A stretch of 64,000 nucleotides of DNA from the NCBI RefSeq assembly GCF_963921235.1, contig NC_086097.1:21206001-21270000 (forward strand). Reading direction: 5' to 3'. Below are positions 11,806 to 60,100 of this stretch, one piece after another. How positions within the stretch are numbered: the stretch's first letter is position 1; every line of letters begins with the position of its first letter. Made by a program: the position numbers and the translations under genes. The DNA is from Mobula hypostoma (Eukaryota). The notes beneath the pieces were generated by a model. It ran no database searches. It was not told where the DNA came from and saw nothing but the letters and a program-made list of their open reading frames with translations.

Positions 11806-13490
11806 CCTAAAAACCACATTCTTAACCATTGACTCTAACATCTTCCCAACCACTGAGATCAGACTAACTGGCCTATAAAATTCCTTTCTTAAGCCTTTCT
11901 CCTTTCTTGAAGAGTGGAGTGACATTTGCAATTTTCCAGTCCTCCGAAACCATTCCAGAATCTAGTGATTCTTGAAAGATCATTACTCTTGAGCCACCTC
12001 TTTCAGAACCCTGCAGTATACACCATCTGGTCCAGGTGACTTATTCTCCTTTAGATCTTTCAGTTTCCATTACCTCTCCCTAGTAACGGCAACTTCACAC
12101 ACTTCTGACCCCTGACAGTGGAACTTCTACCTTACTGCTCATGTCTTCAACAGTGAAGACTGATGCAAAATACCTAATCAGTTCATCTGCCATTTCCTTG
12201 TCCACTATTTCTACCTCTCCAGCATCATTTTCCAGCGGACAAATCTACTCTTGCCTCCCTTTTACAATTTGCCTCAAGACAGCACACACCTCCTCCTCTG
12301 TAATCTGTATGGAGTCCATGAAGTTGATGCCGTTTTGCCTTACTTCTATAGACTCTCTGTCCATCTCCTGGTAAGTGCAAATGCGAAAATGCATTTAAGA
12401 TCTCCCCCTTCTTTTTTGACTCCACACATGAATTACTATTCTGATCTCCCAAAGGACCAATTTTGTCCCTTGCAATCCTTTTGCTCTTAACATATTTGTA
12501 GAATCCCTTAGGATTCTCCTTCACCGTGTCTGCGAAGGTAACTTCATGCCTTCATTTAGCCCTTCCGATTTATTTCTTTCGTGTTCTCTTGCTTTACTTG
12601 GACTCTATAAGCACCTTATTTGTTCCCCTCTGTCTATTGCTGCAATAGACAGGGAGGAACAAATAAGGCTTTTTTTCTTAACCCAAGGCCTCAATATCTT
12701 TTGAAAACCAAAGTTCCCTACACCTGTTATCTTTACCTTTTATTCTGACCCAGGCACATACAAGTTTTCTACTCTCAAAATTACACTTTTGAAGGCGTCC
12801 CACTTACTAAGTACACTTTTGTCATTAAATAGCCTGTCCCAATCCAACTTGCCAGATCCTTTCTCATACCATCAAAATTGACCATTTCTCTAATTTAGAA
12901 TCTTCACCCACAGAGCAGACCTATCTTTATTCAAACTTACTTTGAAACTAATGGCATTGTAATCACTAGATGTAAAGTGTTCTCCTACACAAACTTCTGC
13001 TCTGTCCCATCCACTAACAGCAGATCAAGTACCGCACGCTCTCTCATTGGGACTCCTATGCACAGATTAAGAAAACTTTCCTGAACACGTTTGACAAACT
13101 ATATCCCATCTAGTCCTTTTACAGTATGGGAGTCCTTGTCAATATGTGGAAAGTTAAAATCACCTACTCTATAATAGCCTCATGTTTCTTGTAGCAGTCT
13201 GCAATATCTCTGCAAATTTGATCCTCCAAATAACTCAGACTGTTGAGTGGTCTATAATATGTGACTCAGTTCCATCCATAACATCTCACGAGACAAGTTC
13301 TCCAGTCTGTACTGACTGAACACTGCTTGCCATTTTCCTTGACTAGCAATGTCACTCCTCCTCCTTTAATCCCTCTTGCTCTGTTACACCTAAAACAACA
13401 GAACCCTGGAACATTGAGCTGCCGGTCCAGCCCCTCCTGCAAACAAGTCTCACTAATATCATAATTCCAGGTGTTGATCCATGCCCTAAG
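11806..13490 (-). mobile_element. CR1 fragments (pre-RT and endonuclease regions; probably two copies)
   Basis: ORFs 11674-11931 (YRPVSLISVVGKMLES), 12225-12524 (KENPKGFYKYVKSKR) and 13266-13493 (ISET...GGGV). Confidence 0.8.
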
Positions 13491-49633: not shown

Positions 49634-50207
49634 TCACAAAAGGCTGGATTTCCCAGTGGCTACCCATTTTAATTCTATTTCACATTCTCATTCTGGCTTC
49701 TTCTATGGTCATGATGAGGCTACCTTCAGGTTGGAGGAGCAACACTTCATATTCTGTCTGAGGAGCCTCCAACTTGATGCCATAAACATTTATTTTTCTT
49801 CTTTCTGGTAACTACTCCCACTCTCCCTTCACTCTTTTTCCATTCCCCATTCTGGATGCCTTCTTCTCCTCACCTGCTCATCACCTCCCTCTGCTGCCCC
49901 TCCTTCATTCCATTTCTCCAATGGTCCACCGACCTCTCCTATCAAATTCCTACTTCAGTTCTTTACCTCTCTCACTTATCACCACCCAGCTTCTCACTTA
50001 ATTCTCCCTCTTCCCTACTCACCTATCTTCCCCCTCACATATCACCTGCCAGCTTGCATCCCTTCCCCTCTCCCCACCTTCTTGCTATGGCTTCTTTCCT
50101 CTTCCTTTCCAGTACTGAAAGGATCTCGGCCCAAAACGTTGACTGTTTATTCCCTCCACAGATGTTGCCTGACCTACTGAGTTCCTCCAGCAAATTTTTG
50201 TGTGTTG
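49634..50207 (+). mobile_element. Penelope-like 3' fragment (end of GIY-YIG ORF + terminus)
   Basis: DFPVATHFNS...EEQHFIFCLRSLQ aligns with 24480-24660; TSD ctcttgacag at 49624-49633 and 50208-50217; hammerhead core degenerate. Confidence 0.85.
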
Positions 50208-50358
50208 CTCTTGACAGACAAGCTAAGATTATTATATGAAGTGTAATCAAAACGATATATCCAAAGCACTACATGCTGAACCTCATTAAGATACAGCATG
50301 CATTAGAAAAACAAATTAGACATCAAAATATCACCACTGCTTGTGTGACTCTTCTAAC

Positions 50359-50465
50359 CTGATGTACTGTGCAGGGGCTAGTTTCTCAGCTGCTCGAACA
50401 GGCATGGCTGCTGCAACCTTCTGTGAGACTTGTTTCTCAAGAGCTGAACGCGTCTTTTCAGTCAA
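50359..50465 (-). CDS. SNW1: SNW1 exon 5
   Basis: LTEKTRSALEKQVSQKVAAAMPVRAAEKLAPAQYI(R); 107 nt. Confidence 0.97.
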
Positions 50466-52063
50466 CTGTAATGAAACAATAGTCAGTTTAGCAAATTAAA
50501 ATGCATTACCTCTGGACTGCCTATGGTCAACATACCACACAACTTCTACTTACGATCTTAATTTTCAAGGATTCACAGGCCATCTTACCCAAGACAAAGT
50601 CAACTGTCAAAATGCATTAGTCTTTAAACAAAGGTGTTAGAAACACCATGTCACACAATATTATGAAGTTGCTTATTCCCAGTGGAAGAATGTAATCGTA
50701 CCCTCAATTAAAGGGTACTTCTTCTGACTCTACCAACATTTCAGTTTTGTTTCCACAGATAACACTCACGTTACTTTTGCTGTACCGGATCAGCAGTAAT
50801 ACTGAGGGACATTTTAACATCACTCCGCACTGAAAAGCCTTTCCCTCCCTTCATTTCACCTAGCACACAGTTCTTTGTCATTCTTAAACACCACCAAACA
50901 TCCACACGTGAAAACTTGCTATGAATACCAGTGAGCTATTTAACTTCAAAAGACATCACAAACCCTGCAATCTAACATTATTTCACAGTGGAAATCAAAG
51001 CTGGAATGTTGTATACATAATGATTTGTACCTCTACATCATTATTATTGGTTACTATTGTAGAACATTCAATCTACAAGGCTAACTTGCACACCTACCTG
51101 CTGCTGTCTCTCTGAATCAATCAACCCAGATTCAACCTCTCACAAAGCACATGTGTGGAACATAAGGCAATACAGTCAATTTTATTACAGTACATGATCT
51201 TCCTTTCTGTGTGACTAACGTATGCATGATTTATAATGCTGAAATCTCCCAAAGAACGTGACATACTTTGGCATGTGTATACTTTAGAAGTCCATGTATT
51301 ATAAAATCCTCCAAGATATTGTACAGAATTCATCACACTAACAGAACCAGAGTTAATGCACCTGAATAAAAGAATCTCCTTTTATTTAGAAATGTCATAT
51401 CCTTTGGCATGAAGGGAGTAAGACACCATGAAATCTACTTTGTCATCCCCACATTCCTGTTATGTCTAAAAACATGAAACTTTCAAATTGCCTGAATGTC
51501 TGTAAAATGTCTTCAAATTTTTTAAAAAAATTTCTGTGTAGTACAAATTGTTATTCAGAAACACGGCAGAAAATCTGTACACTAATTTCTTCATGAAAAA
51601 CAGAAGAAACAATCAATTAATCTGTCTGATGGACATGTGCAGGGAAGAAAATATCCATTCCCACAACAAAACATGCAAGATATGTTTAAAGGGTTTGGCC
51701 TGTAGCTCAACCCTTTGAAGACTTATTTCTCCCATAAATCATCTTGTATGTGAAAACAGCTTGTTCATTAACTGACTTTTGGGAACACTACAGTCAATTC
51801 AGCTGCATCCTCTAAGAATCCTCTGGTGTACAGAAAATGTTATGCAAATTCCAGTATTTTTCAACAGCTTTTGTATAAAGTCAGAGAAATGGCTAGTCCC
51901 GCACTGCCAGAGAATGGTGAAAGCAATATTGAAGAGTCATTTGGAAGGACACACACACAGGTAAGGAATTGAGAGATATAGACCACATGCAGGCAGATGT
52001 GCAGTTTAAATTGGCATGGTCTGGAGGGTCTGTCCATATGTTGCACTGTCCTTATGTTCTACA

Positions 52064-52545
52064 AGGCAATAAGACATTGTAGCAGATTTAGGCCATTGAG
52101 TCTGCTCCACCATTCAATTATGGCTGATTTAATGTCCCTCTCAACCTCATTCTCCTGTCTTCTCTTCATTACCTTTGACACCCCTACTAATTAAGAAGCT
52201 ATAAACTTCTGCTTAAATATACCCAATGATCTGGCCCCACTGCTGCATGTGAGAACGAATTCCACAGATTCACCACCCTCTGGCTAAACAAATTCCTCAT
52301 CTCTGTTATAAAGGGACATCCTTCTATTTTAAGACCGTGCCCTCTGGTCCTATACTCACCCACTATAGAAACATCCTCTCCACATCCATTCTATCAAGGT
52401 CTTTCATTATTCAATAGGTTTCAATGAGATCCCTGCTCATTCTTCTAAACTCCTGCCAGTACAGGCCCAGAGCCATCAAACACTTCACACGCATTAACCC
52501 TTTCATCACCAGGATCATTCTAGTGAGCCTCCTCTGGACTCTCTC
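52064..52545 (-). mobile_element. CR1 3' end
   Basis: Similar to 10365-10850. Confidence 0.8.
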
Positions 52546-52665
52546 CAAGCACAAGCTTACTCTTCTTTTCAAATCTCCAGTATCTCCTTGAATTCAATAA
52601 TATCGTCAAATCAGAAACATTCCCTATGTCATACCTACACATTTGTAGAAATATAAGTAGTTTAC

Positions 52666-52761
52666 CTCCTTTATACTGTCTTCATCAGGCCTCTGCAGAT
52701 CTGGGTCATCTTCATTTATAACTTCTTTAGGAATAAGATCTGTAAACTTGCTGTAAATAAC
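52666..52761 (-). CDS. SNW1: SNW1 exon 4
   Basis: VIYSKFTDLIPKEVINEDDPDLQRPDEDSIKE; 96 nt. Confidence 0.97.
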
Positions 52762-53012
52762 CTGCAGAAGAGAAACAAACGTTGATGAACATTGTAAGTC
52801 TGTAAAGCCAAATTTTCTGAATTACACATTACACCCTCATCATCTTGACAACTATTGTATAACTTAATAAAATGTTATCTACCCAAAATATGAGTTAGAA
52901 TTCTGGATCAGGGGTAAGGAAGGTATTCCTCACTCAGCCCATCTGATGATGGAAGTAGAAAACAAAGTAACATAACACATCTGCAGATAAGAATCAGATG
53001 GGAATTACTCTA

Positions 53013-55065
53013 CAGGTCGACCTTCACTAATCTGGCGCCATTGGGACCTGAGGAGTGCCGGATTAGTGAAGATGGCGAATTACAGAAGGATCACATTAAG
53101 CAACAGCTAACCACCTCATCATACCTTAAAAATATCATGTAAATCAGTACAAGTTAGATAATAATGAAACAGAAATATTACCGTGTACATACATCTATTG
53201 ATGCTTCTGGACAAATCTTCAGTGATGTTCCTGGAATCATCGGGTGTTTTGGGTCTTTCAACATCATACAACCTCCTCCAGGCGACCCAGCCGGGGCTGA
53301 TCAGACCCCAGCTTGTGTCCAGATGGCTAGCCACTTATGACTCCATGGCTCCCCTCCTTTGAGCCACAGCCACCTTGAGGCCCTCTCTGCCGCATCGGTG
53401 GTACTGCGGATGGCTCTCCTCTTCCTCTCTCCCTCGATGCCCAAAATGCTGAAGGCTCTAACTAAAGAACGGGCTGCGAATCCCCTACAACCAACCTCCA
53501 CTGGGAGACACCTCGCTCTCCATCCAGCCTGCTGACAGTTGCTGACCAGTCCTGCGTACTTGGACAGCTTCCTTTCAAAGGCCTCCTCTAAGCTATCTTC
53601 CCATGGGACTGTCAGCTCCAGCAGCACCACTTGCTTAGTAGACTCAGACACTAGGACAATGTCTGGTCGCAGGGTGGTGGCTGCGATATGTTTGGGGAAC
53701 TTCAGCTGCCGTTCGAGGTCCACCAACAGCTGCCAGTCCCTTGCAGAGGTCAGAATGCCTGCAGATGTTCTTTTGGCGGGTATTGGCTGCTCCCCAGCTC
53801 TGACAAAGGCAATGGTCTGCTTGGAGGGTCGGGACCGCTTCGCCCACTCAACTCCTGCGCTGACGGCTTCAGCAATGGTCTTCAGGACCTGATCATGCCT
53901 CCACCTGTACCGTCCCTCACCAAGTGCTCTTGCACAGCCGCTGAGGATGTGCTCCAGGGTTCAAATGAGTAGCAAGTGAAATTTTGATAAAGTAATATAC
54001 TGTACATGCACAGATAAAATAAAGGGTACAGGCAAATGTACAGGAATTAACTTATACAGAAAAGTTGAGCTTTCCCGCTTCTAAAGTGAGACGTTTAATA
54101 TACCTTCAGGTAAAGTCACATGTCTGCAAGTGTGGGGTTGTCAGGATCATTAACATTTTGTTAGCACGGTAAATTACAGGAAATTGCCTTATACCCTGTT
54201 GGCAATTCTGCATCTGCTGTTGTAAGTGTTTTTCTTGGTGTACATCTCCAATACAAAGCAGTCTCATCAGCATTGTACACCTGCTCGGAGCTTAATTTTT
54301 CATCGGAGACTAACTTGGCGAACTCGTCAACAAACTCTGCTGTTGCTTCCTTGCCTGCTGAACGTTTTTCACCACACACTGCACAACACTGTAAGCCATG
54401 ATGCTGCTTGAACTGATGAAGCCAGCCTTCACTATAGTCACACTCATAATCTAGTCCTCGTTCTTCATGAAACACTTTTGCTTGTTCCTTCACCATATCT
54501 CCAGATAGTTCAACACCTTCACTTACACGAAGATTAAACATTATCAGCACTTTATCTAGTTCTGAACTTCTTCCATCTTTCATTGTTTTTCTTATGCAAA
54601 TGTTTCTTTCAGCCACTATCAGCAAAAAAATGTAGCAGTTTTTCTTTCTGTTTCCTTATATCGTCCACTGTGGAAGAGCCAATGTTGTAGCACTCGCACA
54701 AGCTTTTCATCGATACACCACTGTCCAGTTTTTTTTCAAGAGTTCAACCTTATCTTTAATGGATAACGTGCGGTGTTTTTGCTTCACAGCACGAAGTGCA
54801 TTTCCTTTACTCACTGGGGTCATAACTGGGGCTAATAAAAGGCCATTGATATTAATAAATGCAGGAAAACAAGCAGAAATCACCTGTCTGTGCTTACAAG
54901 AGCGCGCCAACATGTGAACAGATCTAGTGCAACCAAAACAATGCGCAGCAGATTGGTATGGTGGCCCGGGAAATTTGAAATTACAGTTGTGCGGAAAATT
55001 TGAAATCAGTGCTGGATTATCAAAGGAACCGGATTACAGGTAGTTGGATTAGTGAAGGTCGACTG
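53013..55065 (-). mobile_element. pogo/Tigger DNA transposon, internally deleted, both TIRs present
   Basis: TA|cag(g)tcgaccttcactaatc at 53011 and gattagtgaaggtcgactg|TA at 55047-55067; transposase remnants KHRTLSIKDKVELLKK (HTH-psq), CENP-B-like HTH (SEGWLHQFKQHHG) and VYNADETALYW (start of DDE domain). Confidence 0.92.
53190..53961 (-). mobile_element. 3' fragment of a restriction-like-endonuclease non-LTR retrotransposon (HERO-like), nested in the Tigger
   Basis: Open frame from ~53960 to 53301: TLEHILSGC (zinc knuckle end), RWRHDQVL, LRPDIVL...LLELTVPWE...KLSKY...VEVGCRGF. Confidence 0.85.
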
Positions 55066-55068
55066 TAC

Positions 55069-55230
55069 CTTGTCCTTTGACTGTCCTTGTCTGGCAATGG
55101 CATCAAATTTGATCTTCCCCTCTGCGTCCACCTGAACCGGCAGGGCATTGGATGATTTCTTCTTGCGGCCCATGTCCAATGGAAACTGTGCCATATGGAT
55201 CTCTGGAAATGCGCCTCCATCGCCAAAATC
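55069..55230 (-). CDS. SNW1: SNW1 exon 3
   Basis: DFGDGGAFPEIHMAQFPLDMGRKKKSSNALPVQVDAEGKIKFDAIARQGQSKDK; 162 nt; donor AAG|GTACAG. Confidence 0.97.
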
Positions 55231-56139
55231 CTGGAGGTAGAAAAAGAAAGACCGAATCAGTACTCCCAAGAGTTACAGTTTTATAGAGCTGCAACATTAT
55301 CTTGACACTCGAACTCAATCCACTGATTAACGAAGGTCTTCTTAACTACGTGTGATAAATTTGAGGGAACAATGGACTTGGACCCCAAAATCTTTCTGTT
55401 GCTCCACATGCTAAGAATCCTGCCATCCTTGATGGACACACCCAACAAATTCTATCTCAATAAAACCTGTTTAAGGAGGTGTCAATTAATATTAGGGAAG
55501 TTGAAGTTACCCATGACAACAACACTTATCTTTGCACTTTTCCAAAATCTGCCTCCCAATCTGCTTCTCAGTGTCTCTGTTGCTACTGGGGAGGGGGGGG
55601 ATCACTCCCAATTAGACTAATTGGTCTCTTCCAATTCCTGACTTCCACCCACACTAAGTATGCGATCACTCCACGGCATTTGCCCTTTCTGCAGCTGTGA
55701 TACTATCTCTGAAAGGCATATTTGCATAGCCTTGAAACACATTCAAGATGTTAAACAAGACAGTCATCCATTACACATTTTAAGTTGCTATTTTAAAATT
55801 GAATGTTTTTATTTAGATAGTTCCTCCACTGCAGCCTCTATACATCACTTTACTGATCTTTTTATACTGACTCCTGCAGGTTAGCTGTAAAGATTATTTG
55901 AAAAATGAAAATATACTTCTGAGCACAAAACTTTGAAAGGGTCTACTCAGAGAACAACATGTTGCCTTTTGTACATACATTTTTGAATACACTTAAGAAA
56001 ATATTGAAAAAATTTTTAAACCAGTGACAGCAGGTCACTTGATACTATTTTGTGCTGAAAGTAGGGAAGGATTTGGCCGAAAAAAATACAGAGTAGGGAA
56101 AATATGAGGTTGAAGGAAAAATGGAAAAGTAAATTATTT

Positions 56140-56661
56140 TTTACAACATTGGAAAGAGCTTAATGCTCCAACTACCTTTTTTTGGTTTTCTCAGACGATT
56201 TTATGTTTGAATTTGGAGAAAATTAGAAGTAACCTTTATGATTCTTCATTTAAATTTGAACAGATTTGGGGACCTTTTATTCGATATTTTCATTTAATGT
56301 AATATTTACCCTTCTTGTTTTTTTTTCACTGTTTTTAATGGAGGTCGGGATTGAGGACGTGATTTTAAGTTTAACTCTGTTTGGTTTCAAGTTAGCCCAT
56401 TGCTTTGCCTTGCTTTTAGTTAGCTGCACGGTGGGTTTTTTTTTGGGGTTTTTTTTTTCTTTTTTTTCCATTGATATATATAAAATTTAGTATACTATTA
56501 TGTTATCTTGGTTTCTTATGCTTAAATTACATTGTTTGTAGTATTTTCTTTTTGGTATTGTTATCTTTTGGAATTTTATTATACTTTAACATTGTATTAA
56601 TGTTTATATGGCTTACCTTTTTTGTATACTTACTCAATAAAAAGATTTAAAAAGAAAGAAA
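56140..56661 (+). mobile_element. L1-clade LINE 3' end inserted in an old CR1
   Basis: Peptide HWKELNAPT...LNLEKIRSNL...FEQIWGPFI resembles the fish L1 ORF2 C-terminus; T-rich 3' UTR, AATAAA and A-rich tail; perfect 16-bp TSD gaaaagtaaattattt at 56124-56139 and 56662-56677. Confidence 0.85.
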
Positions 56662-58195
56662 GAAAAGTAAATTATTTAAATAGAGTAAGACTACAAAATA
56701 TTGCATTTAATGGAATCTGGACTCATTTTGCATAAAGCAAAAACTGGTACGGAGGTACAGTGAGTATTTAGGAAAGTTAATGGAAAGTTGACCCTTGTTA
56801 CAAGAATACAATTGCAAGGAAGCTTTGGTCTCCAAATTTAAAGAAGGATTTTGAGGCAGTATGGGGAAGGTTCAATAGGCTGATTTATGGAATGTAAGAT
56901 TTGACCTATAAAAGACAGGTCAAACAGGATCAGACTTTGCTCGTGAAGTTCAAAAGAATGAGAGTTGATCTTACTGAAGCACTATTCACAGGATGGGTAT
57001 TTAATATTTACTCCGATTGGGGCTGTTTATAGCTTTGGAATAAGGAGTCATCCATTTCAGATGGAGATGAAAGGGAACTTCATCTTAGTGTTTCAACTCT
57101 CTGAAATTCTCTAGCCTAGACTTCCAAAGGCAGAATCAGTGCATATATTCAACATGGAGACCAACAGACATTTGAACTACAAGGGGGAATGAACTGCGAG
57201 GTAGAGTTGAAACTAATACTGGACCAACCATAATTCTGTTGAAAGTTGGAGACAGCTGGAAGAACCAAATGATCTACTTCTGCTCACGTTCTATGAGAGT
57301 GAAGAATGACAAGATACTCAGGCTGAACTTCAGTGGAACAGAGAAGTCCGTGTGAAACTGCAAATCACTAATCCTGGTATCCTTGCTATGCAATAATGCA
57401 AAATAGCAAACATTTGGCAGAGCTGTCAGATGCACAGGAACTACAATTATAAACAAGAGCAGCAAGTTTTTGTTTAGAGTTAGTGTTCAACAATCATTGA
57501 CTTATAATTGCTCCCACAAGACTGGAAAAGAGTTTTATCAACAACATTAATTCTCAGTGGCAAAGCCAACCCAACTGCAATGCTGTCAAGCACCCTAGTT
57601 AGTCCATGCCCAAATGTTTTGTCAGGCAAAGTGCTGTGAAAGACCAGAGACTTACTTGAATAGCAGAATTGAAGGCAGGCTGAATACAAATGGTTGTGTT
57701 GATTCCACATATTTAGTAACCCCCTAGTTTTAAGTTTTTCCCCTACTTACCACCCTGGCTGCTGAATACACCTTTTGATAAAAGGTAGAAACAAAGTAGC
57801 AAGTAGTAGAAGTCACACTAAAATAAAAACAGCTCATAAATCTCTCAATACCTTCACTGACAATCAAGGTAATTTCCAGTACTTTGTTATGTATCAGTAA
57901 CACTAATGCCGTAACAAACTCCAAAATATGAATGGAAGATGTGTCCGTTAAATATTTACAATAAAGTTAGTGTTGTTTACACAGCACCTGATGAGCTGTG
58001 GCAGAGAACTGAGCACCTGAAATTCAGTCTCTATGCAATCGATAATAATGCTGAAAGTACAGACATGAATAAAGATAGAAATTCTTACATGTATCAATAT
58101 TACTAACTGCTGCAACTAAATGTCTAGTTCAAGCACATGATATGTCAATGTTGTGTTCGGCAAAATAGATAATCATGACAAGATTGCAGATGTAC

Positions 58196-58349
58196 CTCCA
58201 AGGAACGAGGAATCCATCCTTTTCGATGCCCATATGGCGGAGGTTCTCTGCGGGATGCTACCAAGGCTGTTTGTCTGGCTCGTTGAGCACGGGCCTTTTC
58301 GTCAGCTTCCAGCTGATCCTGGGACAGCTGTGTTGGCGCAGGAAGAAAA
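58196..58349 (-). CDS. SNW1: SNW1 exon 2
   Basis: (S)FLPAPTQLSQDQLEADEKARAQRARQTALVASRREPPPYGHRKGWIPRSLE; 154 nt. Confidence 0.97.
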
Positions 58350-58977
58350 CTTGAAAATAAAAATAAAAATGTTTTTAATATTTCCAATAGATATGGCAAG
58401 GCAAATATCTCCTGGCTTTTCCACAGTGGAAAAGTTCCTGTGAACACCTGGACCGTGGAGCAAGTTGTTCAAAACCGTAATTTATCACACTGTTATCAGA
58501 TTTTTTTTATTTTAGAAATCCCTCAAAAGATTAATATTTTCATTTGAAATTTGGAATATTAAGGCTGGCCACACCATTGTGAGCACTTACACTACTTTGC
58601 AACTTATACCTGTGAGACATATTTTACCATACTACATATAAATAAGAAATATCTGATTAAGGATGTCCCACTTTAAATAGGCTACAGCACAACATAGGAG
58701 ATTAGAGCATTGGGGAAAATATATTAACATGGATTAAAGAATGGAAGTAAGAGTCAGAATAAAAGGTCCTTTTCAGACCAGAACAATGTAACCAGTGGAT
58801 CAGTCCTTGGCTCTCAATTATTTCCTATTGATATTATTGACTGAGAGGAGGGTGGAAAGAGTATTAAGCACCTAATTTTGCTTATGGCATGAAGATAGGC
58901 CGCAGATATTGACTCATTATCGTCACATGTACCAAGATACAGTGAAAAGCTTGTCGTGCTTACTGTTCATACAGATT

Positions 58978-59900
58978 AAAATTATGAGGGGTATAGATAG
59001 GGTAAATGCAAACAGACTTTTTCCACTAGATAGGGTGGGACTACAACTAGAGGCCATGGGTAAAAGGTGAAAGTTGAAAAGTTTAAGGGGAACATGAGGG
59101 GAAACTTCTTCACTCAGAGGGCAATGAGAGTGTGGAATGAGCTGCCAGCACAAGTGGTGCATGTGAGCTCAATTTCAACGTTCAAGATAAGTTTGGATAG
59201 GTACGTGGATGGGAGGTAGGGAGGGCTATGGTCCCAGTGCAGCTCGATGGCTATAGACAGTTTCTAGCCGCTGTCTGTAAGGAGTTTGTATGTTCTTCCA
59301 GTGACTACATGGGTTTCCTCTCAGTGCTACAATTTCCTCCCACAGTCCAAAAATGTACCAGTTGGTAGGTTAATTGGTCATTGTAAATTGCCTGTGATCA
59401 GACTAGGGTTAAATCAGGGGTTGCTGGGCGACATTGGTTCGAAGGGCTGGGACGGCCTGCTGCAAACTGTATCTCAACAGACAGACATAAATAAGTAAAG
59501 CGTAAAAGCTACCGAAAAAGTGCAGTAAAGAATAAAATGCAAGGTCATGATAAGATAGATTATGAAGCCAAGAACTAACAATGGGATAGAAGCTCTCCTT
59601 GAGCCTGCTAGCACATACCTTCAGACTTTTGTATTTTCTGCCCAATGGCAGAGCAGGTAAGAGGGAATGACTGAGGTGGGTGGGGTCTTCGATTATGCTC
59701 TCTGATTTACTGAGGTGAGAACTATGTATACACAGAGTCCAGAGAGGGGAGGCTGGTTCCCGTGAAGCACAGAGCTGTGTCCATAACCGCAGTTTTCTGC
59801 AGTCACGTGCAGAGCAGTTGCCATACCAAGCTGTTACGCATCCAGACAGAATGCTTTCTATGGTGCATCAATAAAAATTGGTAAGAGTTGACAGAGGCAT
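58978..59900. mobile_element. Cluster: CR1 3' end (+), V-SINE (+), Rex1-like fragment (-)
   Basis: Similarity to other copies in the window; ORF 59409-59645 (RKYKSLKVCASRLKESFYP). Confidence 0.65.
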
Positions 59901-60100
59901 GCTGACCTGCTGTAGCTGACTTGAGAGGACAAAAAATATAACAGTTAAGATTTTGTAAAAAGAACAATAGTTGAAGTGCTCAGAGTATCACAACGTCTAA
60001 TCTATTATCCTCAAAGTTAGTGATGTAACTTTGAATTGACATAACAGCAAATATGGAAATCATAACCATCTAGTTCCTTTGAGTCTTAAGTTCTTTTCTA

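Follow-up and report, generated by a model that had tools for sequence, protein, structure and literature searches.

Splice signals derived from transposons are known, and among the closest described cases are those of C. elegans, where laboratory alleles with Tc1 near a donor undergo hybrid SOS splicing. Hybrid cuts are given for a Tc1 copy 3 nt from the donor in the legend of Extended Data Fig. 9 of PMC12779559, and the portion of that source drawn on here speculates that ITRs carry back-up splice sites; SOS cuts are scattered, mostly non-GU-AG, lie near the ITRs and leave indels, and two intronic Tc1 copies were not SOS-spliced. SOS splicing depends on ITR pairing and on AKAP17A, CAAP1 and RTCB. 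Introners (10.1101/2022.06.06.494994 and PMC11282704, in their accessible parts) obtain a splice site from a target duplication together with an element end, reach nearly to both splice boundaries and give rise to new introns. For the donors themselves, the accessible part of PMC11732430 distinguishes two classes, of which AG//GUNNN makes up 45.1% of human donors and is preferentially read via U5 loop 1; G at -1 is stated to permit any base at +5, and AG//GUAAGUA is given as the extended donor consensus. Members of the AG//GUNNN class are characterized by dependence on U5 loop 1 or LUC7L3 and not on U6 m6A. TIRs of the pogo superfamily are 8-33 bp long (PMC9219625, in the part available), and the TIGD2-like/jerky-like group is derived from Tigger (PMC7386202, likewise in part).

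Intron 3 of SNW1 in Mobula hypostoma adds a natural case to the known transposon-derived splice signals, with a main mechanism that is ordinary. By analogy, the locus can be regarded as the natural counterpart of the laboratory Tc1-near-donor alleles with hybrid SOS splicing: a TA-targeting ITm element lies hard against a donor, the TIR of its family contains a donor-like CAG/GT (a single slash marks the exon-intron boundary), and the TIRs can pair. In contrast to the alleles in the cited part of PMC12779559, the SNW1 case is natural, vertebrate and present in two species, the element is on the intron side, and the exact canonical junction is the only one among the joints listed; scattered, mostly non-GU-AG cuts with indels near the ITRs were not found among these joints (15 of 33). 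The origin of a splice site from target duplication plus element end is shared with introners as far as the cited parts describe them, but no new intron arose in SNW1: the host acceptor is kept, with 249 nt of the old intron between it and the element, which places the locus outside the introner definition. The literature searched, which covers subscription journals thinly, yielded no report of a fixed natural transposon in a donor TA or in SNW1 intron 3.

The window, i.e. the whole stretch of 64,000 nucleotides that was analyzed, was compared at 80% likeness with four of 24 listed runs: a presumed-RNA run of the window's species (X5, contigs only), a presumed-RNA run of a related species, species B (X15, contigs only, from a study different from that of X5), a DNA run of species B (X8, contigs), and a metatranscriptome (X20) as a third RNA-type run. 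The RNA label of X5 and X15 is presumed, and is backed by the absence of the exact intron-skipping joint from the DNA run. Contigs lose rare isoforms and carry no information on splicing efficiency, which applies to all splice joints reported here, and statements on joints cover the 15 that are listed of 33. Donors were scored by consensus matches (of 9) and predicted U1 pairing energy. An Rfam scan of positions 50000-60000 returned no families at the gathering score. Self-comparison of the window also revealed a near-perfect palindrome of 55 bases at 12614-12668.

On the minus strand, exon 3 of SNW1 ends in AAG and the intron opens with G, TA and CAGTCGACC; the present donor is AAG/GTACAG, in which the donor-side copy of the TA target duplication (55066-55067) occupies +2/+3 and the element begins at +4. 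The TIRs share a perfect core of 17 nt (53016-53032 and 55047-55063), which has two matches in the window against 0.08 expected, a number reached in none of 100 shuffles; no further copies occur in the window beyond both element ends, and a search of viral contigs gave no matches. Twelve metagenome matches to the core were rejected as chance 17-mers, as they have no wider similarity to the element. The termini differ by one base (left, CAG-TCG; right, CAGGTCG), which the first-pass annotation did not note, and the G missing from the left TIR corresponds to donor position +7. The TA target is confirmed by 150 contigs of species B DNA that align through 53011 and then diverge. The first-pass annotation had placed an element in the TA at +2/+3 with its TIR serving as donor from +4 onward, and the TA on both sides, the perfect 17-nt core and the 2307-nt intron bear this out; the presence of a transposon end inside the SNW1 intron 3 donor is confirmed. 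Its figure of about 250 nt for the intron without the element agrees with the 252 nt computed by subtracting the element and one TA, and the read-through it foresaw on donor failure, 20 codons followed by a stop ending at 55006, was reproduced. The features of the locus are collected in Table 1.

Table 1. Features of the SNW1 intron 3 locus, in window coordinates
Feature	Position	Strand	Basis or remark
SNW1 exon 4	52666..52761	-	Protein alignment and contig joint
Host-intron remainder, 249 nt, with own acceptor	52762..53010	-	Single contig, depth 7.9, species B DNA
TA target duplication, copy 2	53011..53012	.	Sequence; X8 contigs
Right TIR, 20 nt, CAGG read inward	53013..53032	+	Repeat search; X8 contig break-points
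Tigger 3' part with sub-terminal hairpin	53013..53179	-	Hairpin 53022-53036 / 53057-53071
Nested 5'-truncated non-LTR retrotransposon, 3' fragment	53180..53962	-	Protein alignment; contig joints
Tigger/pogo 5' part	53963..55065	-	Covered by family contigs
Broken transposase remnant (CENP-B_N, HTH_Tnp_Tc5 and first catalytic Asp)	54139..54823	-	Profile search, protein alignment
Cryptic donor CAG/GTGATT in the element, GT at 54883	54875..54886	-	8/9 consensus matches, against 6/9 for the real donor
Left TIR, 19 nt, supplies donor from +4	55047..55065	-	One G shorter than the right TIR and most family ends
Donor +1..+3 (G and TA target duplication)	55066..55068	-	Sequence; splice joint GT..AG
SNW1 exon 3	55069..55230	-	54 codons, AAG at end

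All 14 exons of SNW1 were found; exons 2-14 were aligned to shark and skate proteins without internal stop, and exon 1 was located by motif. Exon 2 is 87.5% identical to that of skate and 80.4% to that of catshark. Exon 3 is matched with no differences by contigs of both presumed-RNA runs (X5 record 17 and X15 record 8), its loss by skipping would be frame-neutral (54 codons), and a Pfam search with it gave no match. The idea that exon 3 is a diverged duplicate was dropped, as most of its odd residues are also found in shark and skate SNW1.

The joint from 55069 to 52761, with 2307 nt skipped and GT..AG ends, was found in X5 (one contig, depth 76) and in X15 (one contig, depth 434) and was absent from the DNA run X8; the metatranscriptome contributes a single contig that ends at 55079 without reaching the donor, and the joint is hence represented in two of three RNA-type runs. 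The element-made donor works in two species. No joint to the cryptic donor at 54883 is among the 15 of 33 joints listed; use of this donor would add 185 nt including a stop. Sense ATTAAA hexamers are located inside the element at 54760 and 54099.

In the DNA of species B, one contig (X8 contig 18) extends from unique flank into the right TIR by 37 letters, and another (contig 25) from exon 3 into the left TIR by 27 letters, with 30 intron-side letters against a bridging rule of 31. Around the insertion, 892 letters could be aligned between the two species, with 15 differences. An empty site was sought in X5, X8, X15 and X20 and none was found; X8 bears the insertion. The insertion is common to the window's species and species B and thus predates their split.

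The whole element (53013-55065) comprises 2053 bases, of which 1270 nt are Tigger and 783 a nested non-LTR fragment. Judged from its sequence, the element is assigned to Tigger/pogo, by its TA, its TIRs, its DNA-binding domains and its nearest named proteins. Pfam profiles for CENP-B_N (E 9e-06) and HTH_Tnp_Tc5 (E 2.2e-06) both score past the curated cut-off, and the domains and the protein alignment at 54823-54139, minus strand, place the transposase remnant in the sense of SNW1, as the first-pass annotation had it. The remnant contains frameshifts, one stop and deletions, and the rest of the DDE domain with the second and third catalytic residues is gone. Among named proteins, those closest to it are TIGD2-like and jerky-like (51-67% identity); a DD32D spacing, within the DD29-36D range used for pogo, is present in five of seven close relatives, while the other two fall outside the search pattern, and the region is deleted here. 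With TA duplication, short TIRs (here 19/20 nt), CENP-B_N and HTH_Tnp_Tc5, and with DD32D in five of seven close relatives, the element resembles the JRK/TIGD2-related branch of Tigger as portrayed in the available passages of PMC7386202 and PMC9219625; it differs in that two of the catalytic residues, the second and the third, are absent from the SNW1 copy and a LINE is nested in it, and insertion into a donor is absent from those passages. The sub-terminal hairpin has a z of -3.0, with two of 200 shuffles equally good.

At the left end, 60, 9 and 9 contigs of three runs (78 in total) stop at 55063 and continue with loose letters starting CTGTA, which indicates that most family ends read CAGG. 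For the family terminus, proposed earlier as a test of the insertion, this gives a divided result: positions +4..+6 read CAG either way, but the majority terminus CAGG differs from the end that had been claimed, a difference that touches only +7 onward. In X15, three contigs that derive from other loci stay aligned up to and including 55068, on the strength of which a G-less terminus variant may exist in the family. A species B contig has two extra letters relative to the window, and its end point is compatible with the CAG or the CAGG state. The SNW1 Tigger part differs from family contigs at 353 of 3985 letters (18 records, among the 25 records listed, with 7143 more beyond the list). A miniature Tigger derivative of about 150 nt, in which one terminus (53013-53102) is fused to the other (about 55004-55065), occurs in all three ray runs. 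Furthermore, contigs of the transposase region extend past the 54185 deletion in presumed RNA of both species (X15 record 3 and X5 record 12); X15 record 3 continues for 972 letters beyond 54185, at a depth of 335 against 434 for SNW1, and points to a transcribed family copy elsewhere in the genome, possibly intact or domesticated. Database models also include close transposase relatives fused to host proteins, with a GTF2I-like partner in the sawshark model and a TBC1D4-like one in the crayfish model.

The nested fragment, 783 of the 2053 element bases, had been overlooked in the earlier reading. Tigger copies without it join 53179 to 53963 (among the joints listed, one contig in X5, four in X8 and one in X15), from which it follows that the Tigger part is 1270 nt and that the LINE arrived later. 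The fragment has an open frame of 219 codons (53960-53304), and the 3' end of its family lies at 53183, as seen from loose contig ends; compared with family contigs it shows 15 differences in 459 letters (two records, among the 25 records listed). No Pfam families were found in the fragment. Over 208 amino acids it aligns to the C-termini of RT-bearing polyproteins, with up to 90% identity (conger-eel elements), and by this alignment it comprises a C-terminal zinc knuckle and a PD-(D/E)xK-type (restriction-like) endonuclease. It is 61-63% identical to the pufferfish polyproteins Q76IN2 and Q7T1J8, which we take to be HEROFr and Zebulon, hence our label HERO/Zebulon-like. The HERO clade, as defined in the accessible part of PMC4640811, likewise has a zinc-knuckle tail and a PD-(D/E)xK-type endonuclease at the C-terminus. 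The clade is placed by its RT, however, and for this RT-less fragment the likeness consists in the C-terminus and the presumed names.

At the protein level, the nested LINE is 85-90% identical to elements of conger eel, dab, pipefish, herring and catfish. SNW1 itself is only 77-87% identical between skate and teleosts; the LINE is thus more alike across fishes than the host gene, so that horizontal transfer of the LINE is likely on these comparisons. Horizontal transfers are described as common around ray-finned fish in PMC7070016, whose main text, in the part available, mentions neither HERO nor cartilaginous fish. In the DNA of species B, depth of the LINE contigs drops steeply from 3' to 5', as expected with many truncated copies. 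Loose ends also recur in X8 at 53229-53230 (89 contigs) and 53320 (40 contigs), which suggests that part of the LINE 3' tail is also found in another family or in a SINE.

The predicted U1 pairing of the present donor is -6.8 kcal/mol, against -8.0 kcal/mol for the empty-site reading and -5.7 to -10.9 kcal/mol for the 13 SNW1 donors; in register, the present donor forms five U1 pairs, the fewest of the 13, and the others six to nine. The GTAGAG donor of the empty site is a reconstruction from the window alone, and is one base off the consensus GTAAGT. The exchange had been proposed as near-neutral, which stands in so far as the energy remains inside the range of the gene; given the fewest in-register pairs, 'neutral' is approximate. 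Eleven of the 13 donors (32297-63316) have AG at -2/-1, six of 13 lack G at +5, and the exon 2 donor is GTACAT. The intron 3 donor belongs to the AG//GUNNN class (AG at -2/-1, no GURAG, no +5G); it has the same exon-side AG as the class in the available part of PMC11732430, and differs in that a transposon end supplies +4 onward. The share of AG//GU donors in SNW1 (11/13) is above that of human genes, for which about half is reported. Tolerance is probably owed more to the AG//GU class of the donor than to a chance fit of the TIR to the old donor, the cause suggested before.

We favor, with a probability of roughly 0.7, the reading that a transposon entered the TA of the donor and that splicing there persists as AAG/GTA was kept and donors of this class are read mainly via the exon-side AG. 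In this sequence of events, an element with TA on either side inserted before the split of the species that share it, with exon 3 joined to exon 4 at GT..AG in the contigs of both. As the TA target is duplicated, any TA-targeting element landing here retains AAG/GTA. According to the published donor classes, U1 and U5 loop 1 would pair with the exon end and GUA, positions +4..+6 would be weakly constrained, and, compared with the empty-site reading, the CAG of the TIR would cost about one G.U pair. Decay of the element and the younger LINE fragment would have followed later, and the missing G at +7 probably reflects decay or a variant form of the terminus instead of a repair that was required. 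The gene carries the element as a tolerated passenger, not as an adaptation; predicted TIR-TIR pairing over the present donor (0.27-0.39 at +2..+5, about 0.75 from +6) could impose a cost. A rough count, which takes a TA density of 6.5%, a 2.45-Gb size proxy from X8, an assumed 100,000-150,000 GTA donors and an assumed 150-5000 copies, gives 0.1-5 expected donor-TA hits for the family; hits in this number are expected by chance, and the survival of one would require no special mechanism.

The evidence at +7 can also be read the other way, i.e. that the insertion was harmful at first and that selection favored the deletion of a G from the left TIR because it repaired the donor, which we consider unlikely. 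The majority terminus CAGG (78 contigs, three runs) would give an in-frame competing CAG/GT at +6, adding Val-Gln, and the G loss takes this site from 5/9 to 3/9 consensus matches and from -5.6 to -1.6 kcal/mol; moreover, the family terminus would form a perfect TIR stem of 22 bp, predicted to cover +2 onward, and once the G is lost, +2..+5 are predicted to pair with the far TIR at 0.27-0.39 instead of 0.66-0.96 if the LINE is in place, or at 0.10-0.15 instead of 0.52-0.76 without it, and the TIR duplex weakens from -40.6 to -33.5 kcal/mol. However, a C at +3, as in the +6 site, is disfavored in donors, the same loss also cuts the in-register U1 pairs from seven to five, and equilibrium folding over 1.5-2.3 kb disregards co-transcriptional U1 binding. 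The SNW1 copy has many other indels, among which one more is unremarkable, and, with three X15 contigs aligning through 55068, a G-less variant may simply have inserted. The locus would be the fossil of a healed donor if a fresh +6 donor and TIR stem had been followed by back-up (hybrid SOS/TIR-donor) splicing until the G deletion restored canonical splicing; this fuller account is improbable as well, and, if true, would show in nature and in a vertebrate the back-up donors within TIRs that have been suggested on the basis of Tc1 alleles in C. elegans. Doubtful to a greater degree is an ancestral consensus donor AAG/GTAAGT, for which the insertion was a real downgrade absorbed by the exon-side AG, with the right-hand G gained later: the empty-site reading is one base from AG//GUAAGUA (PMC11732430, part available), and at the right junction the terminal G of the TIR and the duplicated TA again make GTA, after which a consensus tail would be a liability, but an extra indel is demanded at one exact place, and the empty-site reading is already an acceptable AG//GU donor, which is the rule in SNW1.

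Removal of the element aided by TIR-triggered SOS or hybrid SOS-spliceosome splicing is very improbable. Pairing of the SNW1 element TIRs is predicted, and the hybrid cuts next to Tc1 and the proposed back-up sites in ITRs provide a precedent; on the other hand, SOS cuts are scattered and leave indels, whereas the sole exon 3-4 joint among those listed is exact and GT..AG, intronic Tc1 copies can escape SOS splicing, and the TIRs measure 19-20 nt here against 54 nt in Tc1. That the locus was misassembled, or that this copy of SNW1 is a dead duplicate, is hardly credible: the region is repeat-rich and the whole element is spanned by no single contig, but both junctions are reproduced in species B DNA contigs, spliced contigs from the window's species agree with exon 3 at every letter, and exons 2-14 have no internal stop.

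In SNW1, a core splicing gene, a TA-targeting transposon occupies the inside of a donor that works, and it has persisted across a species split. A TA-targeting hit in a donor is possible because GTA donors contain the target TA. As a single case, the locus is an instructive curiosity with a main mechanism that is ordinary. On a genome-wide scale, surviving hits would be predicted in AG//GUA donors and would avoid donors that depend on GURAG, and the allele with its reconstructable earlier states would constitute a minigene series on TIR pairing, TIR-encoded donors and SOS factors in vertebrates.
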